A DNA stretch of 64,000 nucleotides, taken from assembly GCA_963842085.1 (NCBI GenBank), contig CAWJET010000002.1, positions 1,622,507 through 1,686,506 on the forward strand, given 5' to 3'. Both the position numbers and the translations under genes were made by a program. Origin of the DNA: an uncultured delta proteobacterium. GTDB lineage: Bacteria > Desulfobacterota > Binatia > Binatales > Binataceae. Under the pieces are notes generated by a model. The model searched no databases. It had not been told where the DNA came from and was given only the letters and a program-made list of their open reading frames with translations. Of the stretch, positions 1,629 to 24,645 are shown one piece after another (the first letter of the stretch is position 1; every line of letters begins with the position of its first letter).

Positions 1629-1733
1629 GATTTTTCTCGGACTGCAAATTACCTGTCACGAAACGGCCCAGGTGGCTCCATCGGATGCATCCGGATCCGT
1701 GAGCGAAGGCGAATATCGTTCATCGCCAAACGG

Positions 1734-2351: not shown

Positions 2352-2367
2352 TGGCATGGCCGATGCA
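2352..2367 (+). promoter_or_regulatory. Putative sigma-54 (-24/-12) promoter of the molybdoenzyme operon
   Basis: TGGCATGGCCGATGCA has GG-N10-GC spacing, about 140 bp upstream of the first gene. Confidence 0.5.
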
Positions 2368-2507
2368 TTTATCGCACAGACAATCGGAAGGACCGAGATT
2401 GACGACTAACACGAGCTGAGCCGCACTCCATCTAATCCGAACGAGCGAGCGGCCAAATAACGGCGTGCGAGGCAATTTGTCTTCGCGAAGGACCAAGGGG
2501 TAGTGCA

Positions 2508-3629
2508 ATGAGCCAACGGCAACTTGCGATGGTAATCAATCTCGACAAATGCATCGGGTGTCAGACTTGTACCGTGGCCTGCAGCACCCACCGCCTCAAT
2601 CATCCCGGCACCGAAATGCTCCGCTACATATGGTGCGAAACCAAGCCCGGCGAAGGTTGGCCCAAGGGATGGATGGAGCTGGGGCGCAAGGTTCCGGATC
2701 GCGTGCGAGACTACGGTGGAACCTGGACCTTCAACTGGGAGGAGGTCTATACCTCGCCGGTCGGGACCAAGTACCTGCACCCAATCGTCAAAGAAACCGG
2801 CGAACCGGCGAAGTATGGGCCGATATGGGAAGAAGATCAGGGCGCCGGTGAGTGGCCCAATGGATACTTCTTCTATATGCCCCGGCTCTGCAATCACTGC
2901 ACGGATGCTCCTTGCATAGAAGTCTGTCAAGGCCACTTCGCACGAGGCGGCGGGCTGCCGACCGCCCAAGCGAACGGGCACAAGAACTCGATGCGCAAGC
3001 GCGAATCGGACGGGATCGTCATGATCGATCCGAGTTCGTGCGACGAGTGCGGGCTGTGTGCGGCTGCATGTCCCTACAAAATCCCGATGGAGAACCTGCT
3101 GGCGGGCACCTACGAGATGTGCGACTTCTGCGCGGGCCGGGTGGAAAACCAGTACGCTCCGGTATGTGCGAAGAGCTGCCCCGCGCGCGCGATGTACTTC
3201 GGTTACCTGGACGACAAGGAGAGCTACGTCTCCAAGCTCGTCAACGAATACAAAGTTGCCTTGCCGCTGCGTCCGGACTTCGACACGGGTCCGAATGTCT
3301 ACTACATACCTCCCTTCATCCGGCCAACAACTTTCGCAGCCGACAATAAGCCGACCGGTCAGGCCGATATTCCGACCGATCTGCTTCGTAAGTACTTCGG
3401 ACCGGGCGTTGATCAGGCGATGGCAACGCTCAAGGAGCATCGCGCACGCGCCGAGCGCGGAGAACATTCCGAATTGATGGATCTGCTCATCATTTACAAA
3501 TGGTCGGACGCCTTCGCCCCGTTCAACGTCTTGGCTCCCGTTGAGCCGATCGAACAGGGTGTCGAGGCTAGTAGGGGAAGCCAGCCGATCGAGCAGGGTG
3601 TCGAGGCTAGTAAGGGGCACCGGTCATGA
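2508..3629 (+). CDS. DMSO reductase type II FeS beta subunit (EbdB/NarH-like)
   Basis: QLAMVINLDKCIGCQTCTVAC, YFFYMPRLCNHCTDAPC, CDECGLCAAACP, CDFC...CAKSCP, TGPNVYYIPP. Confidence 0.92.
   Translation: MSQRQLAMVINLDKCIGCQTCTVACSTHRLNHPGTEMLRYIWCETKPGEGWPKGWMELGRKVPDRVRDYGGTWTFNWEEVYTSPVGTKYLHPIVKETGEPAKYGPIWEEDQGAGEWPNGYFFYMPRLCNHCTDAPCIEVCQGHFARGGGLPTAQANGHKNSMRKRESDGIVMIDPSSCDECGLCAAACPYKIPMENLLAGTYEMCDFCAGRVENQYAPVCAKSCPARAMYFGYLDDKESYVSKLVNEYKVALPLRPDFDTGPNVYYIPPFIRPTTFAADNKPTGQADIPTDLLRKYFGPGVDQAMATLKEHRARAERGEHSELMDLLIIYKWSDAFAPFNVLAPVEPIEQGVEASRGSQPIEQGVEASKGHRS
3544..3617 (+). repeat. 39-bp tandem duplication in the beta subunit C-terminus (PIEQGVEAS x2)
   Basis: agccgatcgaRcagggtgtcgaggctagta at 3544 and 3583. 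Confidence 0.9.
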
Positions 3630-6481
3630 GCAAGCAGAAGGGTGAAGAAAATCCTGTGGCTCGGCAAGCAACCGCCGAAGCCCCCGAGAACTACTGGCAG
3701 TGGGATAGGTGCCGATGGGGAACGCATCGCGTCAATTGCTATCCCGGCAGTTGTCCCTTCCGTGTCTATGCCAAGGACGGCCACGTGATTCGCGAGGAAA
3801 TCTCGTGCACCTATCCCGAGTTCACCGACCCCGACTACAAGGTGCCTGACTACAATCCGCGTGGATGCCAGAAAGGCTACCAGCACTCGAAGGCGATGTA
3901 TGGCCCCGATCGGCTGCTATACCCGATGAAGCGCGTAGGCGAGCGGGGCAGCGGTAAGTGGGAGCGAATCAGCTGGGATCAGGCCTGCGATGAAATCGCC
4001 GGCAAGTTTGTCGATATCATCATAAAATATGGGCCGCATGCGATCTCCGACGACCATGGAACCAATGGCGCTGGCGTGTTGCGCGGCGGGGGCGAAGGCG
4101 CCTCGACCGGATTCGTGTCGCGCTTGGGCGGGGTCAGCTACGACCTCAATTTTCTCATCGGCGATTTCAACCCCGGTCAGTACCTGACCTTCGGCCAGTT
4201 TCAGCATGCTCCGGGAATCGAGACCTGGTTCCTGGCCGACACGATCATAGCTCTTTCAAATCCGGCTTATGGGAACATTCCCGACATCCACTATATTCTC
4301 GAGGCGCGCTACCGCGGCGCCAAGGTAGTTGCGATCGCGCCTGACAAGAATGCCACTGCGCAGTTCGCTGACATGTGGCTGCCAGTCAACTGGTCTGCCG
4401 ACCCGGCGTTGTGGCTCGGCGTCTGCAATATCCTGATCGAAAAAGGATGGCTTGATATCGAGTTCATGAAGGAACAGACCGATCTCCCGGTGTTGGTCCG
4501 CATGGACAATCAGCAGTTCCTGCGCGGGTCCGACTTACGCGAGGGCGCGGATATGGAGCAGTTCTATGCAATCGACAGCGCCACCGGCAAGCCCGAGCAA
4601 CTGCCCAAAGGCACGCTTGCGATGCCGTTCGACTATGCGCTTGAGGGCAACTGGAAAGTCACCCTGAAGGACAAGAAGCAGGTCGAGGTCACAACGGTCT
4701 ACGAGCTGCTCAAGAAGCGAGTCGCTGAATACACGCCGGAAAAGGTCCATGAGATCTCCGGGGTCCATCCCGATCAGCTCGCCCAATTGGCCGAACTGGT
4801 CAAGCCACCGCGCAAGGTGTTCGTCTTTGTCAACTGGAACGCCGGCAAGCTTTACCACGGCGATCTTCTCGAGCGCTCTTACTGTTACATGCTCGCGCTC
4901 ACTGGAAACGTCGGCAAGGCTGGCACAGGATCACGAGGATGGTCGGCCGGCGCTGAGTACATCGGCGGCGCCGCGGTCGTTGGCGGGATGCCCAATGAGG
5001 TGCTCGAGACCGGCAACCCGCTGCTTCACGCCATGAATATGTCGCAGAAGATACAGGAGGACTATCGGACGCAGTTCAAAATGGACCCGACGATGCCTCA
5101 GGCCGAGGCTGCTTTGGGTGCGCTCCGCGAAGGTCTCAGAGCGGGCGGCACACTCTCGCCGCCGGTTTGGCTCTGGTACCACCACGCCGGGTACAAGGAG
5201 GTGTGGGACAAGTACCTCGACGACCCGAACGCGCCCAGGAAAATCAGCGAGTACGCGGAGGAAGCGCTTGCCAACGGCTGGCAGAAAGGATTCGTTCCCA
5301 ACAAGGACGTCAGTCCAAAGGGGATGCTGGTATCCGGATCGAATCCGCTCCGCCGTCACCGCGGCGGCATGAACACCTACTTGCAGACTCTGTGGCCAAA
5401 GCTCGAATGCATCGTGGTACTTGATCCGCGCTGGAGCACCACCGGACTTTACGCCGACTACGTTCTGCCTGCCGCATCGTTCTACGAGTATGCCGACTCG
5501 AAGTACTCGACTCCGGCGACGCGCTTCAGCACTTTCACGGATCAGACCGTGCCTATGCTCGGCGAGTCCAGATCAGACCGCCAGATCACGCTCGCCCTGC
5601 TCAAACGCATCCAGGAGCAGTTCCTGAAGAGAGGCGTGGAAAAGTACAAGTCAGGTGACCGCGAGATCGTGGTCAAGGATCTCTACTGGCGCGCCACCTT
5701 TGGCGGACGCTACGGCGAAACTAACGAAGACGAGGAGGTGTTGGTAAACGACACCTTTAACGCGCTTGGACAGATGGGTTGGTTCGAGAGTCTCGACGGT
5801 GAGGAACTCACGATCGACAACCTGCGCAAGAACGGGAAAGCCTGGCTTACCGGCCGCCCCGCCTGGCACGCTACCGTGGTCCAGAACTCGGACATGGTTT
5901 CAGGCAGTATTTTCTGGCCCTTCCGCGATCAGCTCGAGCAAAAGGTGCCATACGCAACTACGACGCGGCGCATGGAGCTATACCTCGATCATCCGTGGTT
6001 CATCGAGGCCGATGAACATCTTGTTCGCTACAAGCAGCCGCCCAACATCGGCGGCGCCCAGGGCTTGCGGCTTACCAGCGGACACCTGAGATGGAGCATT
6101 CACTCTAACTGGGTAGTGTCCTACGAGATGCTGAAGCTGCATCGCGGCGAGCCATTTGCTTTCATCAACGAAACCGTCGCGAAGAAAAAAGGCATCGCGG
6201 ATCATGACTACATCCGCGTTTACAATGACTACGGCTCCTTCATAACCAGGGCGAAGCTCAGTTCCTGCACGCGGCCTGACCAGCTAGTGATCTACCACGC
6301 GTGGGAACCGTATCAGTATCCGAATTGGATGCCGTACGACGGCTTGCTGCCAGGCCCACCCAAGGGCCTGCACTTCGCGGGCGGCTATCGCCATTTCGAA
6401 TACACGCTGTGGAACTGGTCTCCTTCGCAGTCGGATCGGCAGACCAATATCGACTTCGAAAAGGCCGAACTTCAGAACTAG
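3626..6481 (+). CDS. Molybdopterin oxidoreductase alpha subunit 1 (type II, ethylbenzene/steroid C25 dehydrogenase-like)
   Basis: FS0 motif THRVNCYPGSC...PRGCQKG; Asp-ligand segment LIGDFNPGQYLTFG; AGKLYHGDLLERS; HLRWSIHS. Confidence 0.92.
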   Translation: MSKQKGEENPVARQATAEAPENYWQWDRCRWGTHRVNCYPGSCPFRVYAKDGHVIREEISCTYPEFTDPDYKVPDYNPRGCQKGYQHSKAMYGPDRLLYPMKRVGERGSGKWERISWDQACDEIAGKFVDIIIKYGPHAISDDHGTNGAGVLRGGGEGASTGFVSRLGGVSYDLNFLIGDFNPGQYLTFGQFQHAPGIETWFLADTIIALSNPAYGNIPDIHYILEARYRGAKVVAIAPDKNATAQFADMWLPVNWSADPALWLGVCNILIEKGWLDIEFMKEQTDLPVLVRMDNQQFLRGSDLREGADMEQFYAIDSATGKPEQLPKGTLAMPFDYALEGNWKVTLKDKKQVEVTTVYELLKKRVAEYTPEKVHEISGVHPDQLAQLAELVKPPRKVFVFVNWNAGKLYHGDLLERSYCYMLALTGNVGKAGTGSRGWSAGAEYIGGAAVVGGMPNEVLETGNPLLHAMNMSQKIQEDYRTQFKMDPTMPQAEAALGALREGLRAGGTLSPPVWLWYHHAGYKEVWDKYLDDPNAPRKISEYAEEALANGWQKGFVPNKDVSPKGMLVSGSNPLRRHRGGMNTYLQTLWPKLECIVVLDPRWSTTGLYADYVLPAASFYEYADSKYSTPATRFSTFTDQTVPMLGESRSDRQITLALLKRIQEQFLKRGVEKYKSGDREIVVKDLYWRATFGGRYGETNEDEEVLVNDTFNALGQMGWFESLDGEELTIDNLRKNGKAWLTGRPAWHATVVQNSDMVSGSIFWPFRDQLEQKVPYATTTRRMELYLDHPWFIEADEHLVRYKQPPNIGGAQGLRLTSGHLRWSIHSNWVVSYEMLKLHRGEPFAFINETVAKKKGIADHDYIRVYNDYGSFITRAKLSSCTRPDQLVIYHAWEPYQYPNWMPYDGLLPGPPKGLHFAGGYRHFEYTLWNWSPSQSDRQTNIDFEKAELQN

Positions 6482-6499
6482 CGCCGGGAGGGCGGAAAA

Positions 6500-9355
6500 A
6501 TGGCAACCCAAGTGGACACGTCCGCCGTGCATCCCTCGCGACGAAACTCTGTGCAGGAGCAGCGCCAATATTTTGAATGGGATAGCTGCAAGTGGGGTAC
6601 CCATCGGGTGAACTGCTACCCGGGAAGTTGCCCCTTCCGGGTCTACGTCAAGGACGAGAAGGTGGTGCGCGAAGAAATCTCGTGTACCTATCCGGAGTTC
6701 AACGATCCCGAGTCTAAGGTGCCCGACTACAATCCGCGCGGATGCCAGAAGGGCTATCAGCATTCGCGTGCGATGTACGGGCCGGACAGGATATTGCATC
6801 CGATGAAGCGCGCGGGCGAGCGCGGCAGCGGAAAATGGGAACAGATTTCCTGGGAGCAGGCTTTCGAAGAAATCGGCGAGAAGATCGCTAATGTTATCCA
6901 GAAGTACGGACCCAAGGCGCTGGTTGACGACCACGCCGCCAACGGCATCGGAGTGTTTCGCGGCGCCGCCGAGGGCTCGACCACCGGCATGACTTCGTTA
7001 CTCGGTGGAGTGAGCTTCGATCTCGACTTCGTGACCGGAGACTTCAAGGTCGGCCAGTGGCTGACTTTTGGGGAGATGCATCACGCGCCAGGCATCGAGA
7101 ACTGGTTCCTACCGGATACCATCATCCTGATGTCCAACCCGGTCTATGCGAACATTCCGGACGTCCATTACCTCCTGGAAGCCCGGTATCGCGGCGCCAA
7201 GATAATCGCCGTCGCACCGGACAAGAATCCTTCCGCCCAGTTCGCCGACATCTGGGTACCCATCGACTGGTCGGCGGATCCTGCGCTGTGGCTCGGGGTG
7301 GCAAAGATTCTGATCGACAACGGATGGATCGACACGGAGTTCGTCAAGGAACAGACCGATGCGCCAATCCTGGTTCGATCGGATGATGGCCGGTTCTTAA
7401 GAGACTCCGACTTGCGCGAGGTCGGAGACCCCGAGCAGTTCTATGCGATCGACAGCGCGAACGCGCAGCTGGTGCAGATGCCCAAGGGCACGCTTGAAAT
7501 GGCCGCCGACTATGCTCTCGACACGCGCACCGGTGTGCTCCTGAAAGACGGCACTAAGGTCGAGGTCCGAACCGTTTTCAATCTGCTCAAGGAGCGTCTG
7601 CTCGAGTACACGCCGGAGAAGGTCCACCAGATGTCGGGGGTTCACCCGGACATGCTCCACCAGATCGCCGATCTCTGCCGGCCGCCCCGGAAGATTTTCG
7701 GCTATATCAACTTCATTACCGGCAAGCTCTATCACGGCGATCTGCTCGAGCGCTCCTATTGCTACATCCTTGCGCTGACCGGGAACGTCGGCAAACCGGG
7801 TACCGGCACCCAGGGCTGGTCGCCGGGAACGGAGATCTCGGCCTCGATGGCGGCGGTCGCCGGGATGCCCAAGCAGGTGATCGAATCGGAGAACCCGATC
7901 GCCGCGGCCGCGACCTTGTCCCAGCTGATGATGGAGGATTACAAGACGCGCCTTAAGATGGACCCCACGATGCCGCCGGTCGAGGCCGCTAACGGCGCGA
8001 CGCATGAGGGCCTCAAGTCGTCGGGCACGCTCACGCCCGGGGTTTTTCTCTGGTATCGCCACGCCGGATACAAGGAAGTCTGGGACAAGCATCTGCACGA
8101 TCCATATACCGACAAGAAGATCAGTGACTACGCCGAAGACGCAGTCGCCAGGGGCTGGTGGGACGGATTCGACCAGAAAGTCACGCCGCGCGCCATGTTC
8201 GTATCAGGATCGAATCCGCTGCGCCGTCATCGCGGCGGCATGAATACCTATATAAAGACCCTATGGCCGAAGCTCGAAACGATCGTCGTATTCGATCCGC
8301 GCTGGAGCACGACCGGTCTTTATGCGGACTATGTATTGCCGTCCGCGTCCTACTACGAATATGCGGACGTTAAGTATTCGACCCCCGACACACGGCTGCT
8401 ATGCTTCACCGATCAGTCGGTGCAGCCGCTTGGCGAAAGCAGGTCGGATCGCCAGATTGCCCTCGGCGTGTTGAGCAGCATCGCGAAGCACCTGAAGGCC
8501 CGCGGCATCGAAAAGTACAAGGCGGGCGAAAACCGTGAGGTCATCGTCGACGACCTGTACTGGCGCGCGACCTACGGCAACCGCTATGGCGAGACCAACG
8601 CGGACGAAGAGCGCATGGTCGATGACTGCCTCCATGCTCTTGGCGAACTGGGATGGCTCAGCAGCCTGGACGGTGAAGACGTTAACCTCGACAACATGCG
8701 CAAGAACGGCAAAGCCTGGCTGAGCGGGCGCCCGCCCTGGCACGGTATGGTATGCCAGAGCTCGGATATGGTCCCGCGCCAGGTCCATGTGCCGATGAGA
8801 GACCAGGTCGAAATGAAGGTCCCCTACGCGACTACCACGCGGCGCATCGAGCTCTACATCGATCACCCGTACTTCGTCGAGGCGGACGAGGCTTTGGTGC
8901 GGCATAAGCGGCCGCCCGATATTGGCGGTCACCAGCCGCTGAGAATCACCGGTGGTCATGTCCGATGGAGCATTCACGCCAATTGGCATACTTCGCTCGA
9001 AATGATGAAGCTGCATCGGGGCGAGCCGTTCGCGTTCATCAATAATACTGCCGCGCGCAAAAAGGGCATCGAGGACCATGACTTCATTCGTGTATACAAC
9101 GACTACGGCGCATTTCTGGTGAGAGCGAAGCTGTCCGCCTGCGTGCGGCCGGATCAGTTGGTTATCTACCATGCCTGGGAGCCGTATCAGCATCCCAACG
9201 GCATGCCCGCCGACGGCCTGATGCCCGGCCCGCCCAAGGGGCTTCACTTTGCCGGCGGCTATCGGCATTTTGAGTACACGTTGTTTAGCTGGGCGCCGTC
9301 GCAGAACGACAGGCAGACCAATATCGACTACGAGAAGGCCGAGTTTCAAGGATAG
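6500..9355 (+). CDS. Molybdopterin oxidoreductase alpha subunit 2 (tandem paralog)
   Basis: Same motifs (THRVNCYPGSC, VTGDFKVGQWLTFG, TGKLYHGDLLERS); 951 aa and collinear with alpha 1. Confidence 0.92.
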   Translation: MATQVDTSAVHPSRRNSVQEQRQYFEWDSCKWGTHRVNCYPGSCPFRVYVKDEKVVREEISCTYPEFNDPESKVPDYNPRGCQKGYQHSRAMYGPDRILHPMKRAGERGSGKWEQISWEQAFEEIGEKIANVIQKYGPKALVDDHAANGIGVFRGAAEGSTTGMTSLLGGVSFDLDFVTGDFKVGQWLTFGEMHHAPGIENWFLPDTIILMSNPVYANIPDVHYLLEARYRGAKIIAVAPDKNPSAQFADIWVPIDWSADPALWLGVAKILIDNGWIDTEFVKEQTDAPILVRSDDGRFLRDSDLREVGDPEQFYAIDSANAQLVQMPKGTLEMAADYALDTRTGVLLKDGTKVEVRTVFNLLKERLLEYTPEKVHQMSGVHPDMLHQIADLCRPPRKIFGYINFITGKLYHGDLLERSYCYILALTGNVGKPGTGTQGWSPGTEISASMAAVAGMPKQVIESENPIAAAATLSQLMMEDYKTRLKMDPTMPPVEAANGATHEGLKSSGTLTPGVFLWYRHAGYKEVWDKHLHDPYTDKKISDYAEDAVARGWWDGFDQKVTPRAMFVSGSNPLRRHRGGMNTYIKTLWPKLETIVVFDPRWSTTGLYADYVLPSASYYEYADVKYSTPDTRLLCFTDQSVQPLGESRSDRQIALGVLSSIAKHLKARGIEKYKAGENREVIVDDLYWRATYGNRYGETNADEERMVDDCLHALGELGWLSSLDGEDVNLDNMRKNGKAWLSGRPPWHGMVCQSSDMVPRQVHVPMRDQVEMKVPYATTTRRIELYIDHPYFVEADEALVRHKRPPDIGGHQPLRITGGHVRWSIHANWHTSLEMMKLHRGEPFAFINNTAARKKGIEDHDFIRVYNDYGAFLVRAKLSACVRPDQLVIYHAWEPYQHPNGMPADGLMPGPPKGLHFAGGYRHFEYTLFSWAPSQNDRQTNIDYEKAEFQG

Positions 9356-9357
9356 TC

Positions 9358-10578
9358 ATGTCCAAGGTCGGCGGGGCGTTGCCATCCTGGTACTGGCCGG
9401 TGGGCGTGCCGCGTCGTGTTCCGGTAGCACAGCAGCCGCTCGGCCGAGTGTTCCGTCAGAAGTTTTTGGCGGCGAAAGATCGCCCGGCAGTCGTATCTGA
9501 GAATTCTCGACTCAGTTATGCCGAACTGCTCGAGCAGAGTCTCACTCTCGCCGGCGGAATCCAGGCCGCGGGCCTCGAGAGCACGGTTGCGATTGCCGAT
9601 CCCGATCCGGTCCAGAGCCTGCTGCTCTGCATAGCTGGATTGCTCGCGGGTCGGTGCGTCTTTCTGGCAGACCCAGCTGACTCCGCGGAGCGACTCGTGG
9701 CTCGGCTCGCTGAGGCAAAGGCTTCGGCGCTCATCACGTCCGACGGCGCCGCAGTTGCGCAGGGTGGCGACGTCAGGATCGTCAAGAAAAGCGAGCTCAA
9801 GGGCACCTTCAGCGACGCAGCAACGGCGAAGCGAGCCACCGAGCCCGCGCTACTTATTCCCAGTGGCCGCGGGGTGGTCGCTCACTCGCATTTTTCAGCG
9901 TCTGCGATGGCTGCCTCGATGGCGGCTTTCATTCCCAAGTTGCGCGAGATTTCCTTCCTGTGCACCGAACCAGCGATAGGCTCGTGGGAAGTGCTTACCG
10001 GTATACTGCTTGCACTTTCGCAGGGCCGGCCAATTGCATTTGGCCGCGTCGAGGAGTTTGACTCCGGTGAGCTCGCTGAGTTTGCCGGCAATGGCTACCT
10101 GATTATTCGGCAAGGTCAGGCCGACAAAATGCTGATCGACGGGTGGGCACCGAAGCTGATTGGCCGGGCGGCCTATGTCTTCGTTTCGACCGGGTTCTTC
10201 ACGCCACGTTGGCGGCGGCGACTGGAATCCTTATACGACCGGCCTATATTTCCGCTTTGGGGCTTGCCCGAGCTCGGTCCCCTGGTCGCGTCTCATCCGA
10301 CCTGGCTTCCGCCGCATGGCCACGGGTTCCCGCTCGTCAACGTGTCGCTGATTCCGATCGATCCGGGAAGCGGCAAGGTTTCGATCGTGCCCTGGGAGAT
10401 GCTCGACGAGGCGGAAGTCGGCGTCGAGGCGCTCTCGGCGATGGTGGGCTACGTGGAAACTGCGCGCAACGTTGGGATCAAGTCCGGCACGGCTGTGAGG
10501 ACGCGGCAGGTCGCGAGCATGGATCATGTCGGCGTGGTTGCTCTGCAGGCAGACCGGAGAGCGGCCAATGCCAACTGA
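9358..10578 (+). CDS. Degenerate AMP-binding (acyl-CoA synthetase-like) protein
   Basis: DRPAVV...LSYAEL, WGLPE, GFPLVNV; P-loop eroded (PSGRGVVAHSH); C-terminal domain missing. Confidence 0.7.
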   Translation: MSKVGGALPSWYWPVGVPRRVPVAQQPLGRVFRQKFLAAKDRPAVVSENSRLSYAELLEQSLTLAGGIQAAGLESTVAIADPDPVQSLLLCIAGLLAGRCVFLADPADSAERLVARLAEAKASALITSDGAAVAQGGDVRIVKKSELKGTFSDAATAKRATEPALLIPSGRGVVAHSHFSASAMAASMAAFIPKLREISFLCTEPAIGSWEVLTGILLALSQGRPIAFGRVEEFDSGELAEFAGNGYLIIRQGQADKMLIDGWAPKLIGRAAYVFVSTGFFTPRWRRRLESLYDRPIFPLWGLPELGPLVASHPTWLPPHGHGFPLVNVSLIPIDPGSGKVSIVPWEMLDEAEVGVEALSAMVGYVETARNVGIKSGTAVRTRQVASMDHVGVVALQADRRAANAN

Positions 10579-11260: not shown

Positions 11261-11265
11261 TCCTT

Positions 11266-12555: not shown

Positions 12556-12566
12556 TGGAGGCGCCA

Positions 12567-14197: not shown

Positions 14198-14198
14198 G

Positions 14199-15221: not shown

Positions 15222-15226
15222 TCGAT

Positions 15227-16519
15227 ATGTATCGACAAAAAGTGTCGCGGCTGACTCTGATCGCTTCCGCGGCGCTGCTGGCGCAAATCGCAGCCATCAA
15301 ATTCGCCGCCGCCCAGGTCCGCCCGGGCGAACTCATAACTGCGCAAGACGCGCGCAAGGTCGAGCAACTGGTCTCGCCCGGCGTCTATCTCAGGGTAACC
15401 CACGGGATGAGCATGCAGATTGCGCCGAGCGAACGGATCGAGTGGCCCCCTCCCTACCGCGAGGCCACCGAGAAATATTCCGCGCAGGTCAGGCTCTCGC
15501 GCGACCATCGCAGTCTCGTGGGATACGTCGCGGGCCTGCCGTTTCCATTCATCGACCCCAATGACGCCGACGCTGGAAACAAAGTCATGTGGAACAACAC
15601 CTTTCGTCCCACTTCCACCGACGATTACGACGCGCGCGATTTCTCCTGCATCAGCGAGTACGAAGGGCTGAATCGGAAATATGCGCCGATTGACTACTAC
15701 GAGATGGGTCACTTGGCCAGCTACAACCTCGTCGGCCGAACCGAAGTCGAGCCGCTGCCGACCGATCCCGATTTCCGTACCAGCGGGCGGCTACTGCTGA
15801 TGGCCTTCTACCCGATGCTGGCGCCGGAAACCGAGCGCGGCCGGGGCTTCATAAGATATCGCTACGCCGATCCGGCCGAGGGCGACGACACCTGGAGCTG
15901 GAATCCCGGCAATCGAAGGATCCGCAGATACAGCGAAGCGACGCTCGGCTCCGCCGCTGGTCCGATTACCTGGTCGCTGGACAATTTCCAGGGATTTGCC
16001 GCCAAGAACGAAAATTACAATTGGCGCTTCCTTGGCGAGAAACCCATGCTCGCCTCGATCGCCGCCGGTCATGTGCCTGAAGTCACCTGCCCAACTGACG
16101 GCGGCGCCAGCGCCTGTCCCGAGCGTTGGGAATTGCGCCGAACTTATGTTGTCGAGGGTGTAGCTCGACGCGATCGAGTCCCACAGGAGTTGTTCGGACG
16201 CCACGTCATGTACATCGACGCTGAAGCGCAATGCATCGTGTACCAGGATCTATACGACCGTGGCGGCGAGCTCTGGAAGAACTACATAAGCTGGATGGCT
16301 TATCGCGATCGCTCCGTACCCGCTGCGCGCGTCGCCATTTACCCATTCAGACGAGTCTTTCAGGTAGGCGCCAGCATTGATGATCTCAAGGACGGATTCG
16401 CGACCATGTGCTATTTGCCCGCGCAGGACACTGCTGAGCACGAATGCTGGTATATAAACATGGGCGCCGTAGACAAGAGCTTTTTCACCGTTCAGGCACT
16501 CACTGCGGCCGCGCCCTGA
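15227..16519 (+). CDS. DUF1329 family exported protein
   Basis: Signal peptide; EATEKYS, GYVAGLPFP, RRIRR, WELRRTYVVEG, YDRGGELWK. Confidence 0.85.
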   Translation: MYRQKVSRLTLIASAALLAQIAAIKFAAAQVRPGELITAQDARKVEQLVSPGVYLRVTHGMSMQIAPSERIEWPPPYREATEKYSAQVRLSRDHRSLVGYVAGLPFPFIDPNDADAGNKVMWNNTFRPTSTDDYDARDFSCISEYEGLNRKYAPIDYYEMGHLASYNLVGRTEVEPLPTDPDFRTSGRLLLMAFYPMLAPETERGRGFIRYRYADPAEGDDTWSWNPGNRRIRRYSEATLGSAAGPITWSLDNFQGFAAKNENYNWRFLGEKPMLASIAAGHVPEVTCPTDGGASACPERWELRRTYVVEGVARRDRVPQELFGRHVMYIDAEAQCIVYQDLYDRGGELWKNYISWMAYRDRSVPAARVAIYPFRRVFQVGASIDDLKDGFATMCYLPAQDTAEHECWYINMGAVDKSFFTVQALTAAAP

Positions 16520-16562
16520 AGCGAGGACTTTGAGTGGCACAAAAGAGACAGGAGAAAAGACA

Positions 16563-17780
16563 ATGACCTATTCACATCTTGCGACTCCTTCGATCAAGTT
16601 GCTCGACCGCGCTGTCGGCGGGCATCGCCTCTCCGCCGATGAGATCCTGCGCCTTTACGAACTCCCCTCGCACGAGTTGGCTGTCGCAGCGCATGCAGTT
16701 CGGCAGCGCCGCACCGACCCAGAGGTGGCTACCTATTCGATTGGTGGCAATATCGACTACACCAACGTATGCGTGGTCGCGTGCAGATTCTGCGCATTTT
16801 ATCGCGCCAGGCACCAGGACGGAGCCTTCACGCTTAGCTTCGACGAGATCGCGCGCCAGATGGACGGGATCAGGCAAATCGGCGGTCTCGACGTTCTGAT
16901 CCAGGGCGGTGTGAATCCAGATTTGCCATTCACCTGGTATCTCGATCTGATGCGGTTTCTGAAATCCGACTATCCCGAGATCCACGTCGACGGATTCAGT
17001 CCGGAGGAGATTCTCGGACTGGAAAAACTTACCGGGCGCGATGCGCTGGATGTTCTCTCCGATCTCAAGGAGGCAGGCCTCGATGGAATGCCCGGCGCGT
17101 CGGCCGAGATCCTGGTGGACGAAGTGCGCGAGCGCTCCGCGCCAACCCGGATGAAAAGTGGCGATTGGTTCAGAATCATCGACGCAGCCATGAAGCTTGG
17201 GCTGCACAACCCGTGGGTGGCGATGGTCACAGGTTTCGGCGAAACGCTGTCGCAGCGCGTCGAGCACTTGATCGCGCTGCGCGACCAGCAGGATCGCGGA
17301 TTGGAATATTACGGCTGCGGCTTTTCGGCTTACAAGGTGTGGCCGGCACGTCTCGAACACACCCGCCTGCGCGGCCAGGCCGCCCAAGCTGCCGAGAAAG
17401 CGATCGTCAAGGACTATCTGCGTAACGTCGCGGTCGCGCGCCTTGCTCTGGACAACATTCAGAACCATCGTACCGTTTGGCGAACGATGGGATTCCCGGT
17501 GGCGACGCAAGCACTGCGCTCGGGAGCCAACGACGTCTGCGGCACCGGCTCGATCAACGCGATCAATGCTTGCATCGAGGCGGCCGGAAAGGATCTACCC
17601 GACCTAACCCAGGCGTTGATTCGCCAGGTTTGCGAATGCATCGAAAATGCCGGCGTCACCGCGGCGCTACGCGATCCTTACTACAATATTATTTTCCGCC
17701 CTGGCTTGGGGAACCCATATGCCGCTCATGGACCCAATCCTCCGCCCGCAGGTATGCCCTCATGCCCGCGGCAGCCATGA
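16563..17780 (+). CDS. Radical SAM protein, MqnC/MqnE/CofH family, divergent
   Basis: [48 protein letters not shown]. Confidence 0.88.
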
Positions 17781-19040
17781 TCCGTAGGGGCTCCGGCGGC
17801 CAAGGGATAACGCGGCGGTTAACGAACGGACAATCGAGCAGCTCGCTTTTGCGTCTCAGAAGCAGATCGCGCAGAACCTGCGCGTTCAGATGCGTTAGCG
17901 AAACCCCGTGGCCAATACAGCCGACGCTGTAAACCGCGCGCTCGTCTCGCAAATAGCCGAGTGCCGGCGCCAGATCCAACGTGACCGAGAACGGCCCACC
18001 CCATCGATGAGTGATACGGACGCCTCTCAACGAAGGAAAGAGGAAGCCGAGGTGCTCCTCGAGATGACGCCACGCGGCTTGATTGCTATCCGCGTCGAGA
18101 CTGTTCCGGTAGGTCAGCCCGACCGGGCCGCCGCCCATCACCAGGCGGTTATCCGGCGTGCGGCGGTAATAATGAATCAGGTTGCGCGCGTCCTCTACCC
18201 CCTCGAAACCCTTCCAGCCGATCGGCCCCAACTGCGCGGGCGTCAGAGGCTCGGTCGCGATCATGTAGGTGAAGGCGGGAATCTGCTTGCGCCTTAGTTG
18301 CGGGAAGAGATGCGAGTAGGCGTTGGTTGCGAATACCAACTTCTGCGCGCTGACGGTTCCGTCCGGCGTCTTCAGCCGGAAGATGGGCTGCGATGTGATC
18401 TCCGTTACCGGCGTGTTCTCATACACCGATACGCCGAGCTTCAGCGCCAGCCGCTTTTCCTCCCGAACCAGCTTGGCCGGATTGACCAGCAGCAGGCGTG
18501 GCTCCCACATCGCACCGATATAACGCGGTGAGTTGACTCGGCCCTGACCGCCTCCGCGTCGATCCAGTCGATCCCGCCGAAACCCAGCGACTTCATCAAC
18601 TCCACTTCGTGATGGAGCCGGGCGACGTAGGCCGGCGCCGTCGCCACCCTCAAAAAGCCGGGACGAATCCGGTCGCAGTCCAGCTTCTCCCGCTGGATAA
18701 GATCGTCCAGCGTGTCCACCGCCCGCTCCATAAAGGCGTGCGCTTCCTTTAGGAACTGCTTTCCGCGAATCATCGCGGTCGTCCCGAAGCCAAGCCCGAC
18801 CACCGTCATCGCGAACGAACCATTCCTGCCACTCGCGCCGTGCCCGATCGTGCGGGCCTCCAGCACCGCGACTTTCAGCGCAGCATCGGCGCGTCTCAGT
18901 TCGCAGGCCGTCGCAATCCCGGTAAAGCCGCCGCCGATCACCGCGACATCGACCGCGATATCGCCCCTGAGCGAAGGCTCGGGCGTATACGGCCCGTAGG
19001 CATCGAGCCACAGCGACAAAGGTGAATCGGGTAATCGCAT
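17689..19040 (-). pseudogene. FAD-dependent oxidoreductase (PuuB/DAO family), 1-nt frameshift near 18540
   Basis: [11 protein letters not shown] and GASGRNG in one frame; ATNAYS, HRWGG, GCIGHGV in the next frame; may be an assembly error. Confidence 0.85.
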
Positions 19041-19135
19041 GGAGTCCTCCTGCTGTCGTCTCCCGCGCGTTCCACCCCGTGCCCGTACGCGGCGAGATGC
19101 GCCCCCTCGAAGACAGTCTTCTGTATGCGCAGCGC

Positions 19136-19924
19136 CTACCGATTCGGCGACGTCACCGCCAATTCCATCCGTTCTTTGCCAACGGGATCCGCAAAGTACT
19201 CGATGTATCGAAGCACCAGCGCGCTCTCCCGAGCACTCAGAAGATCCCCGAAGGCCGGCATCGCTGTATTCGGCTTGCCGTTGGTTATGATTGAGAAGAG
19301 ATAGACCTCGCTCTGCTTGCTCATCCAGAGCGTATCGGTAAAATCGCGAGGCTCCGGAGAAAGAAGGTTCCCAACCGGGCCCGCCCCGTTTCCCCACTGC
19401 CCGTGGCACCCTATGCAATTGTTTGCATAGATGCTGCGGCCCGCTTTGTATTCGGTGAGTCCGTTTCGAGTCTCAGGAATTGAGCCGGCCGAAACTGGTT
19501 GTAGCGCCGGAGTGACTGATTCGCGGTTGAGATGCTGCAAGTAGGCAATCAGTCCTTCGATTTCAGGGCCAGAAAGCCTTTTGAAAGGTGGCATCCGACT
19601 TTGAGGCATGACCGCTCCGGGATCAATCAGATAAGCTCGATACCAGTCGGCCGTCCGCCGCGGCGTCTTGCGAAGGTCAGGAGGTAATCCGGCACGAGCG
19701 TCGCGCGCACTGTAGGGACGACCCGCGATAATTCCATACATGTGACAGTGATATAGGCATTCCTCTCGAACAAAGACTTGGTATCCGAGGCGCTCAGTTG
19801 GACTGAGCCCGCCTTGCGAATCAGACCTGCAACCGGCCGCCAAAGCTGCCGTGAGCAAGACGGTAACGAAGAGCATTAGTGAATTGAAAAGAGTTGCTGG
19901 TTTGCGCGATAACACGTGCGGCAC
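19136..19924 (-). CDS. Diheme cytochrome c lipoprotein (CcoO-like plus class I domain)
   Basis: Lipobox LAAGC; CLYHCH and CIGCH; PRDFT, TAMPAF. Confidence 0.8.
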
Positions 19925-19928
19925 CCTG

Positions 19929-21011
19929 CTATCGCAGCGTGGTCAGGTAGGCTGTTAAGGCCTCTGTCTGTTGTTGAGTAAGATTGAGCTGGGGCATCTT
20001 CCCGCCGGGCAGGGCCTCCTCGGGATCACGAAGCAGCCTGGCCAGGTCTTTCGCGTTCCGCTTCCTGCCGATGTATGTCAATTCCGGTCCAACTTGTCCG
20101 CCCCTTCTCCCGATCGAGTGGCACATGATGCAACCGGCTCCATCGAAGAGCTCTCTTCCGTCATAGGTCACCAGGCCCGGGCCGGTCATCTCCCGGCCGG
20201 CTTCAGCGGCAACGCCGGACAGTCCGGTCGAATTGGATCCTGCGTTGTTCATCGGCGCTATCGTGCGAGGAGATTGCTCCGAGCCACCGCGCAGTGTCAG
20301 CAGGTAGATGGTGATGTCTTTTATCTGATCCCGGGAAAACGGGAACACGGGCATGGTAGAACCCACGACCACAGACTGGGGCCGGGCCAGATGTGCATAT
20401 AGCCAGAGCCAACTTCGCTGGCTTCCAACCGCAGTGAGGTCGGGTCCTTCCTGCCCGCCGGCGCCTTCGATCTGGTGACAACCCATGCACAAGTTGCGAT
20501 TCACCAATTGCCTGCCGCGGATCACCGCCGACGTGACCTGAGTCGGCAAGGTCCCGGACCCGTGGCAGTTGTAACATGCAGCCTGAAGGTATTCTCCCTT
20601 TATCAATGGATTTGACGAACCTTCGACTTGGCCGTGAGCCTCCAACGTGGTCACGGCCCGTCCCTCGCCGCCATGACAAATGACGCAACCGAACTTCTCC
20701 GGGGGATGACTGCGTAACAGCGCAGAGTGTTGCCTCAAGGGTTCCTGGCCGTCCTTGAACGCCGGGTCGTCAATAGCTATGTGGCAGGTCACGCAACGCT
20801 CGACCGTACCGACCTGAGTCGGAAGGATTTGCTTTATCTCGACCACCTGGCTTCTCGCCCATGCCCTCTGCCCAGCGGTGTGCGTCCGAAGAAGAGCCAA
20901 ATGGTAGTAAGTTCTTTGATACTTTGGCCACTCCTGGTCGAAGTTGTCGCGGAGAGCCCATCCGAGGGTGACCGTGAGAAAGAGACCGGCCGCAACGACC
21001 CACTTTTCCAT
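19929..21011 (-). CDS. Pentaheme cytochrome c with N-terminal anchor
   Basis: CVTCH, CVICH, CYNCH, CMGCH, CIMCH. Confidence 0.9.
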   Translation of the reverse strand: MEKWVVAAGLFLTVTLGWALRDNFDQEWPKYQRTYYHLALLRTHTAGQRAWARSQVVEIKQILPTQVGTVERCVTCHIAIDDPAFKDGQEPLRQHSALLRSHPPEKFGCVICHGGEGRAVTTLEAHGQVEGSSNPLIKGEYLQAACYNCHGSGTLPTQVTSAVIRGRQLVNRNLCMGCHQIEGAGGQEGPDLTAVGSQRSWLWLYAHLARPQSVVVGSTMPVFPFSRDQIKDITIYLLTLRGGSEQSPRTIAPMNNAGSNSTGLSGVAAEAGREMTGPGLVTYDGRELFDGAGCIMCHSIGRRGGQVGPELTYIGRKRNAKDLARLLRDPEEALPGGKMPQLNLTQQQTEALTAYLTTLR

Positions 21012-21029
21012 ACTATCCAGAGCGGGCTG

Positions 21030-22301
21030 CTAAGCCGGGGCACCGGGCCAGGCCTGCCACGGCCAATAGAACTTCCAGTTGGGGCCGCGGCAGAAGATTC
21101 CGATCGCTGTAGTCAATACAATCACTATCAAGATGAGAGTCCATACAACGAGTATCGGCGTGCGTTCCCGCGCGAACCACACGCCGATTCCTTTTGGTCT
21201 CCGATCTACGTAAGGCAGCGCGACGAGGAATGTCGTGAGCAGCACCGGAGCGACGACACCGCCCCAGAAGGCCGAGTAACTCACCATCTCTTGCAGGCCA
21301 AGGAAGTACCATGGCGCCTTGGAGGGATTGTTCGGCTGAAGAGGGTTGGCCTGTTGCTCGAGCGGGGCGTTGAACAACAGCGAGGTGGCCATCAGAGCCC
21401 CCATCAGAACTAGGAAAACTGCGAGCTCAACGTAGAATACGGTAGGAAAGGTCTGGACTACCGGCTCGGCTTGCGGAGCTGCGGCAGCTTTTGCCCCCGC
21501 CGGTGCGAGATTTTCGTGTGGATGGGCCAGGCCACCATCCTTGATGACCCGCCAGATGTGATAGTTAATGATCAGGGCGGCAAAGCAAGGTATTGCTATC
21601 ACGTGTAGCGCATAAAAGCGCAATAGCGCGTCGCTCCCGACCGCGTTGCCGCCTAACAGCAGATACCGGAGCTTTGGCCCGACAAGCGGAGCGTAGCTCG
21701 CGATGTTCGTGCCTACCGTCACAGCCCAAAACGAAAGCTGATCCCAAGGCAGAAGGTAACCGGTAAAGCTCAGCGCTAGGGTCAGAAAGAGCAGCGTCAC
21801 CCCGAGAATCCAGTTGAACTCTCTGGGCGGTTTGTAGGACCCCGTGTAGAATACCCGACACATGTGAAGCGCGACGGCAGCCACCATCGCTTCACCACCC
21901 CAACGGTGTAGGTTGCGCATCAACTGCCCGAAGGCTACTACGTAGTCGATGTCCAAAATGCGGCCATAGGCCCCAGTAGTTGAGGGCTCGTAGTAGAACA
22001 TGAGATAGACGCCGGTTATCCACTCGATGATAAATAGGTAGAAACAGATCAAGCCGAGTCCGAAGGTGGACGTGGGCCTGATGCTTCGGCGGTAAACCCT
22101 GGTTGGATGGACGTGAAGAACCAGGTTGCTTACTACGACGGCCAGCCGCTGTCGCGCGCTCCGCGGGTATGGTCCCCGGAAAATCGATCGATAGATGACG
22201 CCAAGGGCCTCGTGCGCGGCCGTAGGCGAGCCCTTCAGCACTCGGCCGAACGCGGCGACGTGACCACGAGCCTTCTGGTCTTGCGGCTCGCCCTGATTCA
22301 T
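21030..22301 (-). CDS. Cytochrome b of a Rieske/cyt b complex (b6-like fused to subunit IV-like)
   Basis: LHRWG...[22 protein letters not shown]...YHIW, KAPWYF. Confidence 0.93.
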
Positions 22302-23611
22302 AGGCCGGCGGCCTCCCACCCGGTGGCTTGCTTGAGCACGCCGCTTTTAATGCAGCCGAGGACTCTAATATCTCCGTCATCAAGAGTGAGCAGCGTCGCT
22401 GGTTCAGAATCTGCGCCGGCGCCGCGCAGCCTGGTTCCCCAAGCGCCCTTCTCTACCCAGAACAGAGAACTGTTTTCGCACCTCGCTATGTCGGTGACAG
22501 TGGAGTCAGGGGACGGGGAAAATCCGGTTGTCCTCAACTGGAAGGCTGATTCCTTTGCTCCCGCCAGAAAGCCCCGGTCGCGAAAGCGGCCGTTCAGCCA
22601 ATGGCGGCGAACCACGAGGATTTCATTGCTGGTCGCGGACCAGCGCAGGCAGCCAAATGCCGCATCTGGCTCCTCCGCAACGCTGATGTTCCGGCCCGTT
22701 CGAAGGTCAGTCACCACCAGAACGTTTCCGGGCGGAGCACCGGGCGCTGTGATGTCGCTGACCGGTAATGACTGCGGGTTCGATGACAAGTAGGCGAGAA
22801 AATCGCCGTCCGAAGAGAGCCGGGGACGCCCGACATAAGCAGTCTCCGCAAGGATCTCTTTCGGGCTCTGCCCATTGAAGCTCATCGCCCAGAGGCCACT
22901 ATCGATCATGCCGCGGAAAGGCAGCAGCCCCTGGAAATAAGCTTCCCCTGTTTCCGCAGACCACCCGAGCGGGACAGGAATAGCCTCTGCCATCGTCTTC
23001 CTCGAATCTGACGAGATGACGACGCGGCCATCTCCCGCGCCAATGTCGGCCAGTACGGTGCGCCAGTGCGCATGACGGCTTCGGCTCTCTCGCAAATTCA
23101 TCTCGGTGAAGATCAATTCCGTGGGGCGTGAACCGAAAGAAAACCCCAGAATCGCGAATCCGTTCTCGGGCTTGACCCGGTAAATGCAGCCCTCCCTGAA
23201 ATTCAGGATCTCTAAATAGTTCCGACACGGATCCACTCCTTCACGCGCCAGATACGCGACCTGGTCCGGGGCACCGGTAATATCCATTTCCCCGGAGGGC
23301 CGCGTGACGAGCGCAACCAGCGCTCCGCTGCGAAGATCGAGCGAGGCCAGTGTAGTAGAGCCCCATCGAATAGTAGCTACCAGCAATCCCTGACCGGGGA
23401 GGACAGGCCAGGCACGCGATTCGCGGCTGAACACCTCGCGAATTCCATCACCTCGCGAGTGCAGATTCTGAGAGTCGGAGTTCGAAGAAGGGCTTTCAGA
23501 TACTATTGAGGGACTCGGGGCGCAACCTGAGAATAGAATCGAGAGCGCGGCAATGGCCGCAATGTTAGCGCAAGTCTTCAAAACAGATCGGTCACAGAAA
23601 ACACTAAACAA
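22298..23611 (-). CDS. Predicted lipoprotein with TolB-like beta-propeller
   Basis: Lipobox LFSGC; [18 protein letters not shown]; overlaps both neighbours. Confidence 0.6.
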
Positions 23612-24074
23612 ACTTGAAATAAGTTTCTCTGGGAACGCTGAAACTTGTGTCCACTACCAGTTGTCCGTCGGGAGCCTGAAGAATCCTGAACCAGGGCAGC
23701 GGCCTCGGAGCGGGTCCCGAGAGCACCACACCGTTCGCGTCGTACTTGCTGCCATGACAGGGACATTGGTAGCCCCACTCGACTCTGGCGACTGCGCAGC
23801 CGAGATGAGTGCAGGTCGCAGACATCGCCCTGATGCCGCGCTCGGTCGATATGAGGAACAGCCGGTCTTTGCCGAAGAATACCTCGGTCCCCGGCGGAAA
23901 GTCTTCGGGTTTTCCGACCTGGATCGCGGCAGGGGAACCGAACGTGACATTCGGCACCAGAAATCGGAGCGAACCGGCCCCCATAATGGCCACCGGCAGA
24001 CTCACTCCGCTCCAGGCCAGTAAGGTCAGGAACTCCTCACGCGTTAGCTTCTTCACTCTTGCGCCCCGAGACAA
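23604..24074 (-). CDS. Rieske [2Fe-2S] protein
   Basis: [21 protein letters not shown]; N-terminal TM helix. Confidence 0.95.
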
Positions 24075-24101
24075 CCAACCACGCCCGATGTCCCCGCGCT
24101 A

Positions 24102-24300
24102 TCAGGTGGCAGTGCCAACTACGCAGTTGCGGCCCAGATTATTGTAGTGTGTGTCACGCAGCGCGGGCGCAAAGCCGGCGGCATCGATGCAGCCTTCCAC
24201 TTGCTGTATCAGGAGTTGCGTCGGGTCCGGGAGTTGTTTGCCGGTGGCCATCATGACCGCGTTGGTCGCGCTTATCGAGCCGGTCCCGCAAAGATCAGAA
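24102..24300 (-). pseudogene. C-terminal remnant of a second MqnC-like radical SAM paralog
   Basis: DLCGTGSISATNA...GKQLPDPTQLLIQQVEGCIDAAG...LRDTHYN matches [13 protein letters not shown]...[23 protein letters not shown]...LRDPYYN of 16563-17780. Confidence 0.88.
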
Positions 24301-24366
24301 GTCGCACATCTGAGACGCGCTGGTCCGCAGATTACGCACCGGAATCTCGTAAGGACAGGCCGCCGA

Positions 24367-24645
24367 TCAGACGCCACACTCGTCGCACAACCTTTCATTG
24401 GATGATGACGCGTCTTCTTCGCATTTGCGCATCGCGGAGGACACGTGACCTTGGCTTGAAGACATCCCTCCGCCTTTGCCGAAATGCGCTCCAGAAGCCG
24501 TTACACAGGTAGCATTCGTGCAGTGATTGCACAAGCGCGGCATGTAAAAGAAGTATCGGTTGGGCCATTCTCCCGCGCCTTGGTCCTTCTCCCAGATCGG
24601 ACCCAATTTGACCCCGGCTGGCCGTTTTCTTTCGTGACCGAATGG
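24367..24645 (-). pseudogene. Internal remnant of a second FeS beta subunit paralog
   Basis: GPIWEKDQGAGEWPNRYFFYMPRLCNHCT...CDECGV* matches 2508-3629. Confidence 0.9.

Follow-up and report, generated by a model that had tools for sequence, protein, structure and literature searches.

How might an organism oxidise C-H bonds without O2 when two different chemistries for doing so are encoded side by side? To our knowledge, only two routes to O2-free C-H oxygenation are well established, one using water and molybdenum enzymes and the other using prephenate and U32 proteins. In the stretch examined here, hereafter the window (64,000 nucleotides, the terminal 64 kb of contig 2 of a complete genome of 4.93 Mb), genes of both routes are locked in one operon, and the same arrangement recurs across phyla. 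The closest public relatives of the genome are metagenome-assembled genomes (MAGs) labelled Candidatus Binatus or Binataceae. On the + strand, 11 genes (2508-17780) encode, in this order, the Fe-S subunit (beta) and two catalytic subunits (alpha1 and alpha2) of a molybdoenzyme resembling ethylbenzene dehydrogenase (EBDH), three ANL-family homologues (ANL1, orf5, and ANL3), a U32 protein, a CopD-like membrane protein, MoaA, a DUF1329 protein, and a radical SAM enzyme related to MqnC. Neighbouring genes overlap or sit at most 18 bp apart in the open reading frame (ORF) listing, and gene identities, taken from Pfam and NCBIfam profile scores against curated cut-offs, bear out the tightly packed, same-strand gene list proposed in a first-pass annotation. 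This operon converges tail-to-tail on a - strand operon (the bc operon) for a Rieske protein, a beta-propeller protein, a cytochrome b, 5-haem and 2-haem cytochromes, and a flavoprotein.

We suggest, at somewhat less than an even chance, that the cluster is an accessory, horizontally spread system that oxidises a lipophilic or aromatic compound bearing a carboxylate without using O2, the electrons being passed out via the CopD-like protein. This reading is prompted by the protein families present, the CoA-ester genes in sister modules, the lipid and beta-oxidation neighbours, the multiplied alphas, and the patchy occurrence of the trait. No prior description of such a cluster was found in the open literature (supplements and subscription papers lay outside the search), and within the literature searched it still holds that no described operon combines these parts. 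We also know of no counterpart to the cluster partners in any characterised system.

Distribution and forms of the gene cluster

A search of genome contigs seeded with U32 returned 24 loci, all of which keep the order ANL1-orf5-ANL3-U32-CopD-like wherever the DNA extends. An alpha gene lies upstream in 18 of them, a contig end intervenes in five, and in the remaining one the bc operon stands between alpha2 and ANL1. Two Actinomycetota MAGs carry beta-alpha-ANL1-orf5-ANL3-U32-CopD-MqnC-like, with one or two radical SAM genes, at 40-66% identity, and a gammaproteobacterial MAG has the same order through CopD without an MqnC-like orthologue; across these three MAGs, gene order is kept at 40-70% identity. 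MoaA and DUF1329 are found inside the cluster only in Binataceae. The neighbourhood is thus kept both in Binataceae and across phyla, and the homologues are not scattered as separate genes.

Co-occurrence was scored in 106 genomes of the order (96 of high quality, all belonging to one family), with type-A U32 defined by at least 66% identity to the window U32, and with cytA as our name for the clade of alphas lacking a twin-arginine translocation (Tat) signal that holds the window pair. Type-A U32 occurs in 17 of the 106 genomes and a cytA alpha in 15, while 89 have neither. Every genome with a cytA alpha has type-A U32 (15/15), and the converse holds for 15 of the 17 type-A U32 carriers; the genomes are kin, and these counts are therefore not independent. 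In the window's genus, 10 of 30 species carry the U32 gene, and alpha copies number 1-6 per genome. We conclude that the trait is clearly accessory and that its parts travel together.

Could the neighbours simply be unrelated operons, joined by chance or by nearby mobile elements? A region rich in transposases and recombinases does begin at 25.5 kb, and the position and orientation of the bc operon vary between genomes. For the + strand operon, however, this is contradicted by the order and tight spacing kept down to 40% identity across phyla and by the 15/15 co-occurrence at the genome level. Together with the recurrence of the linkage to bc genes in a distant lineage (discussed below), this makes a chance assembly most improbable.

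The five genes ANL1-orf5-ANL3-U32-CopD-like are a self-standing module. A second, diverged copy is located on the same contig 2 at about 1,389,000-1,399,000 (L109), with identities to the first copy of 40% for U32, 30% for ANL3, 31% for orf5, 27% for ANL1, and 27.5% for the CopD-like protein. It adjoins genes for a thiolase-like protein, two coenzyme A (CoA)-transferase subunits, and a 470-aa nitroreductase-like protein, with no alpha or beta nearby. Modules of this second kind (type B) are also present in MAGs labelled Binataceae, Acidimicrobiia, Myxococcota, and Burkholderiales, and hybrids exist in which CoA-transferase and nitroreductase-like genes accompany an MqnC-like gene (L111/L217 and L220). 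The type-A form without alpha and beta was seen on one Rhodobacter-labelled contig and one Actinomycetota contig (L143, L114). A gene for a T4 gp19-like tail-tube protein lies ~2 kb from the second copy.

The molybdoenzyme and its U32 and CopD-like partners

The two alphas, 68% identical to each other, share with EbdABC(D) and the steroid C25/C26 dehydrogenases the Molybdopterin and Molydop_binding domains, the N-terminal His/Cys motif, the Mo-ligand Asp, and a Lys equivalent to EbdA K450. Among solved structures, EbdA (2ivf_A, E = 1.5e-168) is the best match for alpha1, followed by perchlorate reductase, NarG, and NxrA. D180 of alpha1 aligns with the Mo-ligand D223 of EbdA and K408 with K450, and both residues are invariant across 15 clade members. 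All scores nevertheless stay under the curated cut-offs: 764.7 and 714.1 bits for alpha1 and alpha2 against TIGR03479 (cut-off 984.75), and 585.5 and 575.5 bits against the EbdA equivalog model NF042978 (cut-off 2000). The beta subunit, with 17 Cys and the four-cluster arrangement typical of the EBDH clade, reaches 313 bits against TIGR03478 (cut-off 480.7) and 288.7 bits against the EbdB model; one beta is shared by two or more alpha isoenzymes. Its C-terminus (window about 3540-3626) carries two tandem copies of an 11-residue motif, PIEQGVEAS[RK]G.

Unlike EbdABC(D) and the steroid dehydrogenases, the cluster enzymes have no Tat signal, no gamma haem-b subunit, and no NarJ-like delta, and in the window their genes are joined to the U32/ANL/CopD module. 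About 20 residues precede the His/Cys motif in both alphas, and an RR pair combined with a hydrophobic stretch is missing from alpha1, alpha2, and 10 further clade members. RR motifs are present in 4/4 EbdA equivalogs and in 19/20 other Rhodocyclaceae rows, the exception (L183) looking N-terminally truncated. Neither the gamma family EB_dh (PF09459) nor the NarJ-like delta family (PF02613) has a match in the 100%-complete genome. The N-termini establish the molybdoenzyme as Tat-less and, by prediction, cytoplasmic, and it would be the first example of cytoplasmic EBDH-type enzymes without gamma and delta.

Among 5.8 billion clustered proteins, alpha relatives fall into two bands, one at 61-93% identity and the other at no more than 44%. 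The upper band is uniformly Tat-less and stems from Binatus, Terriglobales, Actinobacteria, and Sterolibacterium MAGs; identity to the EbdA equivalogs is ~34%. In a tree of 59 rows (IQ-TREE quick search, LG+G4, SH-aLRT support only, midpoint root, no named outgroup), which includes 4 proteins that pass the EbdA equivalog cut-off together with 20 further Rhodocyclaceae enzymes, cytA forms one starred long branch (SH-aLRT 100, length 0.83) outside all other rows. The EbdA references came from the family-level search, the order-level search having none outside the Sterolibacterium MAG. The alphas thus do not nest within a characterised clade as far as that clade is labelled, lying outside both the EbdA equivalogs and the sampled Tat-bearing Rhodocyclaceae enzymes. 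EbdA is the only characterised clade labelled in the tree; S25dA, S26dA, and CmdA are unlabelled, and that cytA is probably distinct from these three is inferred from the 44% ceiling and the missing Tat signal.

Multiple alpha isoenzymes per genome are a further likeness to Sterolibacterium, in which seven alpha-beta-gamma isoenzymes with different sterol substrates are described (PMC11061730). Orphan alphas occur in varied contexts with no shared theme; one adjoins a Zn-dependent alcohol dehydrogenase (Zn-ADH) gene and one lies near a UbiA prenyltransferase gene. NarGHI offers an architectural analogy only, in that a cytoplasm-facing type II alpha-beta pair would be joined, possibly, by a small haem membrane partner. 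Differences from NarGHI are a NarG model score of only 202.6 bits, the absence of NarI and NarJ, and a membrane protein that resembles CopD and has a single invariant His.

The U32 protein resembles UbiU/UbiV(/UbiT), TrhP, and RlhA in its Peptidase_U32 domain and four invariant Cys (C76, C182, C186, and C216), and it shares with them the setting of O2-independent hydroxylation, as outlined in PMC10990095 and PMC11574389. It differs from UbiU and TrhP, whose models it matches at only 26 bits (cut-off 440) and 32 bits (cut-off 534), in Cys spacing and in an extra C-terminal CX3CX2CX2C (C325-x3-C-x2-C-x2-C335). Unlike UbiU/UbiV, it is encoded by a single U32 gene, which is always accompanied by a gene for a CopD-like membrane protein and by the three ANL-like genes. 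The CopD-like gene adjoins the module in every locus seen, and its product is invariant in 29 homologues at H13 (first helix), IPP, W103, K124, and N155. According to PMC10990095, U32 oxidases are thought to require an electron acceptor that is still to be identified, and the CopD-like protein is a genetically defined candidate for it.

U32 genes are also found in a second setting. In L088, L115, L116, L118, L120, L121, L124, and L133, a U32 gene lies amid up to six alpha genes, and its product is 45-48% identical to type-B U32; in L116-type loci it is the sole non-alpha, non-beta gene amid 5-6 alphas. The alphas checked in L088, L115, and L116 are Tat-less; in the tree they make up a starred clade of their own, surrounded by Tat-bearing enzymes. 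Since U32 adjoins Tat-less alphas of two separate clades, the data suggest that U32 linkage and Tat loss arose more than once. All five genomes checked in this set (L088, L116, L121, L124, and L133) carry a CopD-like gene of this subfamily elsewhere. Among alpha-seeded loci, U32 is present in 10 of 28 with only Tat-less alphas versus 1 of 39 with a Tat alpha, and that single case (L030) is an over-extended ORF artefact; 10 loci without a full alpha were left unclassed.

These observations could mean that U32 acts on no substrate itself, and that the same may apply to the ANL-like and CopD-like proteins; they would instead stand in for gamma and delta, letting electrons out of Tat-less EBDH-type enzymes and helping to insert or mature the cofactor. 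The restriction of U32 to the neighbourhood of Tat-less alphas in two clades, the failure to find gamma and delta families in the genome, the L116-type loci with U32 as the only extra gene, and the MoaA and NifU-like genes in or beside the Binataceae cluster all agree with such a role. Against this role stand the occurrence of the five-gene module without alpha or beta in the second locus, in many type-B loci, and in L143 and L114, and the 18 of 28 Tat-less-only alpha loci, Dehalococcoidia and Myxococcota among them, that have no U32 within 10 kb. U32 proteins are, moreover, TIM-barrel enzymes (PMC11574389). We consider a purely accessory function for these proteins quite unlikely.

The ANL proteins, the MqnC-like enzyme, and the predicted function

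The presence of three ANL-family homologues is confirmed, ANL1 and orf5 by fold and ANL3 by its sequence match to PaaK. The predicted structure of ANL1 (AF2, pLDDT 89.3) has the fold of an ANL N-terminal domain without the C-terminal subdomain, with the N-domains of the aryl-acid adenylating NpsA, PchD, and MenE as best Foldseek matches (TMq 0.75-0.79). That of orf5 (pLDDT 89), which has no Pfam match, resembles PaaK1/PaaK2 (TMq 0.6-0.69). The Atlas record of orf5 gives MadH_C as a lead, a name linked to malonate decarboxylase MadH, and nothing in the literature searched bore on it. BLASTP finds no significant similarity of either protein to ANL3, and their kinship with it therefore rests on fold. 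A canonical P-loop is present in ANL3 and in neither of the other two; ANL1 has a conserved PxGRGxVxHSH at this site instead. ANL1 and orf5 are separate genes in every homologous locus, which rules out a single frameshifted gene, and orf5 is kept as a gene of its own across 37 aligned homologues.

ANL3 matches PaaK in the PDB (2y27_A, E = 1.2e-26) and stays under the cut-offs of the NCBIfam models DVU_1553, FlxY, and PaaK, the best being DVU_1553 at 113.9 bits (cut-off 300). With 84 bits against 646.3 for the PaaK equivalog, it is not PaaK itself. The DVU_1553 family neighbours a Mo enzyme in Desulfovibrio, a point in favour of the accessory role considered above. The P-loop (G95-T96-x-G98) of ANL3 is invariant, as are Y302 and D306 of its Y-x-TGD motif, and K325 is nearly so.

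We suggest the following scheme for substrate oxidation. The PaaK-like ligase would activate a lipophilic or aromatic acid at its carboxylate, giving acyl-AMP or acyl-CoA, and the Mo enzyme would place a water-derived hydroxyl group at an activated C-H, the alphas differing in substrate. A second O2-independent oxidation or hydroxylation would be performed by U32. The Fe-S chains of beta and of U32 would then hand the electrons to the CopD-like protein, which has a single invariant His, presumably binds haem, and would pass them to the respiratory chain and, in several genomes, to the co-located Rieske/cytochrome b/multihaem c complex. A cytoplasmic EBDH-type enzyme could thereby gain the high-potential acceptor that its periplasmic relatives find in cytochrome c. 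A lipid or CoA-ester context is seen in the SCP2, 4HBT thioesterase, and acyl-CoA dehydrogenase genes surrounding the Actinomycetota cluster, in DUF1329 in Binataceae, and in the Zn-ADH gene beside an orphan alpha. The original proposal of an O2-independent activation or respiratory module is consistent with the families present, and neither separate occurrence of the homologues nor nesting of the alphas in the labelled EbdA clade was found. The cluster is a lead to a possible anaerobic or microoxic carbon-oxidation trait in Binataceae, a family whose MAG titles name peat (SPRUCE) and palsa among the origins.

Several observations weigh against this scheme. The active-site H192 of EbdA aligns with Thr or Ala in the alphas, a His being found two residues upstream. 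The spacing of the four invariant U32 Cys differs from the CX6CX15CX3C published for 4Fe-4S cluster binding (PMC11574389). In ANL3, no Lys is invariant in the last 100 residues across 32 homologues, where the catalytic Lys of the C-terminal domain would be expected, and ligase activity is for this reason not assured. Haem binding by the CopD-like protein is presumed from its single invariant His and from an analogy with HemJ. Four of five close relatives carrying the cluster have no orthologue of the window cytochrome b (best 47-53% identity), and no bc genes are found in the 8 kb downstream in eleven close relatives; the bc complex therefore cannot be an obligatory acceptor. The taxonomic labels all come from MAG records. 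Finally, a simple catabolic scheme leaves no evident task for the MqnC-like enzyme, and its replacement in one genome (L022, below) points towards quinone chemistry.

This enzyme shares Radical_SAM, CofH_C, and an invariant CX3CX2C with MqnC/MqnE and CofH, from which it differs in lying under every equivalog cut-off (MqnC model 324.3 bits against 428.1; CofH family 250.9 against 260.25) and in belonging to a subfamily confined to the module: relatives of at least 48% identity occur only in module loci, and the next are at no more than 39%. Classical futalosine menaquinone synthesis is ruled out, because MqnA/D (PF02621) has no match in the genome. MenB over its cut-off is encoded elsewhere in the genome, UbiD was not found there, and the organism apparently makes menaquinone, as judged from this gene content.

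An aromatic redox carrier or cofactor, probably naphthoquinone-like or prenylated, could still be the product. In such a biosynthetic scheme, the ligases would activate an aryl acid, the MqnC-like enzyme would build or close a ring, and U32 and the Mo enzyme would hydroxylate the ring or side chain without O2, the carrier serving the neighbouring bc-type complex. Besides the exclusive subfamily, one pointer is the gammaproteobacterial L022 (11664-15470), where a compact, complete futalosine set (rSAM-MqnA/D-rSAM-MqnA/D, rSAM being radical SAM) directly follows the CopD-like gene and takes the place of the module-specific radical SAM gene. With no MqnA/D and a separate, bona fide CofG/CofH elsewhere in the window genome, the module enzyme must do something else than these. 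The sole small-molecule role known for U32 proteins, according to PMC10990095, is anaerobic ubiquinone hydroxylation. The ANL1 fold is nearest to aryl-acid adenylating enzymes including MenE, and a UbiA prenyltransferase gene lies near one orphan alpha. An SCP2 gene, reminiscent of UbiT, is located upstream of the cluster in L107.

Against a biosynthetic role stand the patchy spread of the trait (10 of the 30 species in the genus, 17 of the 106 genomes searched in the order), alpha copy numbers of 1-6 per genome along with orphan alphas in unrelated settings, the CoA-transferase and thiolase genes beside the sister module, and a MenB over its cut-off elsewhere in the genome. The module also occurs with no MqnC-like gene nearby in L021, L024, and L031. 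The idea put forward in the first-pass annotation, that the cluster makes its own aromatic redox carrier, is thus weakly supported by the module-exclusive MqnC-like enzyme and the L022 set and opposed by these points as well as by the missing MqnA/D; we consider it unlikely, though a serious rival to the oxidation scheme.

The bc-type operon and the surroundings of the cluster

In six Binataceae genomes, the window's among them, the bc operon directly adjoins the cluster, in three arrangements: downstream on the same strand, downstream and convergent, or inserted between alpha2 and ANL1. In the fifth of the close relatives checked, the cytochrome b orthologue lies ~1 Mb from the cluster. Independent evidence comes from the genomes in which U32 lies amid several alphas: there a further form of the module (type C, 4/4 loci fetched) has the order CopD-orf5-ANL3-ANL1, with 30-39% identity to the type-B copy, and its CopD/ANL genes stand back-to-back with Rieske-propeller-cytochrome b-5-haem-2-haem genes whose products are 38-73% identical to the window proteins, again in 4/4 loci. 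The linkage of module and bc genes is therefore recurrent across deep divergence and facultative. Of the private bc-type complex envisaged earlier, the recurrent association stands (six Binataceae genomes, 4/4 type-C loci), and constancy does not, as the 4/5 relatives without the cytochrome b indicate.

In its most elaborate version, our reading of substrate oxidation would have the cytoplasmic Mo hydroxylase and the U32 oxidase share one HemJ/CopD-like haem exit to a dedicated bc complex, with the ANL trio, two of them pseudo-enzymes, holding the acyl-adenylate or thioester. This combination is rather unlikely as a whole. If true, it would be a new class of O2-independent oxidation machinery, would reveal where U32 oxidases deliver their electrons, and would show how EBDH-type chemistry moved into the cytoplasm, apparently twice.

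The window cytochrome b matches ExtP (258.5 bits, cut-off 290) and ExtQ (72.9 bits) of the Geobacter-type Ext cluster for selenite/tellurite reduction, the 5-haem protein weakly matches ExtS, and the Rieske protein matches the b6f type. Unlike in Ext and b6f complexes, all scores remain under the equivalog cut-offs, a TolB-like propeller, a dihaem cytochrome, and a DAO flavoprotein are added, and the operon is linked to the CopD/ANL module. The propeller protein has no Pfam match and is conserved inside the bc operon. The gene list given previously for this operon is correct except that the flavoprotein is not intact: its frame is broken near 18535, and the FAD-binding N-terminal part (from about 19040) is in another frame than the remainder, which is either a pseudogene or an assembly indel. 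In L214, the DAO homologue comes right after the 2-haem gene.

The bc proteins of the window are 81-94% identical to those of one Binataceae lineage (L018/L216, L110/L214, and L023/L215), while the + strand operon proteins of that lineage share only 58-82% identity with their window counterparts; the contrast could stem from a bc cassette acquired by lateral transfer or simply from its slower evolution. In Thermodesulfobacteriota and Desulfobacterales MAGs (L044, L046, L057, L058, and L064), one operon encodes a Rieske protein, a Tat-type EBDH-like alpha, beta, a NarJ-like protein, a cytochrome b, and a multihaem cytochrome c, in L044 with a sigma-54 activator upstream. The L044-type operon is a different fusion of EBDH-type and bc-type parts.

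Table 1. Genes of the + strand cluster and of the facing bc operon, with window coordinates
Feature	Position	Strand	Assignment and evidence
beta	2508-3629	+	four-cluster Fe-S subunit, type II dimethyl sulfoxide (DMSO)-reductase family; Fer4_11, TIGR03478
alpha1	3626-6481	+	Tat-less EBDH-clade molybdopterin subunit, 951 aa; PF00384, PF01568
alpha2	6500-9355	+	alpha1 paralogue, 951 aa; same domains, same clade
ANL1	9358-10578	+	ANL N-terminal domain only, degenerate P-loop; Pfam AMP-binding, positions 7-100 only
orf5	10568-11260	+	230 aa, truncated PaaK-like core; start moved from 10526 per Atlas record
ANL3	11266-12555	+	PaaK-like adenylate-forming ligase, probably active
U32	12552-13670	+	U32-family Fe-S protein; PF01136 53.1 bits (cut-off 22.4)
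CopD-like	13667-14197	+	176-aa membrane protein, one invariant His; PF05425 28.6 bits (under cut-off 32.1)
MoaA, GTP 3',8-cyclase	14160-15221	+	TIGR02666 344.8 bits (over cut-off 284.05); start codon uncertain
DUF1329/LolA-like exported protein	15227-16519	+	PF07044 149.6 bits
MqnC/CofH-family radical SAM, module-specific subfamily	16530-17780	+	Radical_SAM, CofH_C
DAO-type FAD oxidoreductase	17689-19040	-	frameshifted near 18535; Pfam DAO, profile positions 131-352 only
dihaem-type cytochrome c	19136-19924	-	Cytochrome_CBB3, Cytochrom_C; one CxxCH and one CxxxCH
pentahaem cytochrome c	19929-21011	-	5 CxxCH; Pfam and NCBIfam cytochrome c matches
cytochrome b, b6-like N part fused to subunit-IV-like C part	21030-22319	-	PF00033, PF13631
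TolB/PD40-like beta-propeller	22298-23611	-	Atlas features 0.95 to PD40/TolB clusters; start codon uncertain
Rieske 2Fe-2S protein	23604-24074	-	PF00355 47.7 bits

Just upstream of beta, the - strand of the window (1207-2087) carries genes for a NifU-like Fe-S scaffold and a carboxymuconolactone-decarboxylase-family (CMD) protein, and the CMD gene is also found upstream of beta in relatives. In the Actinomycetota cluster L107 (463-2320), the upstream genes encode NifU_N, 4HBT thioesterase, and SCP2 proteins. On the far side of the bc operon, the window is crowded with mobile-element genes between 25534 and 60243, including rve integrases, IS110-family and DDE_3 transposases, and two large serine recombinases with DUF2924, and it stops at the contig end.

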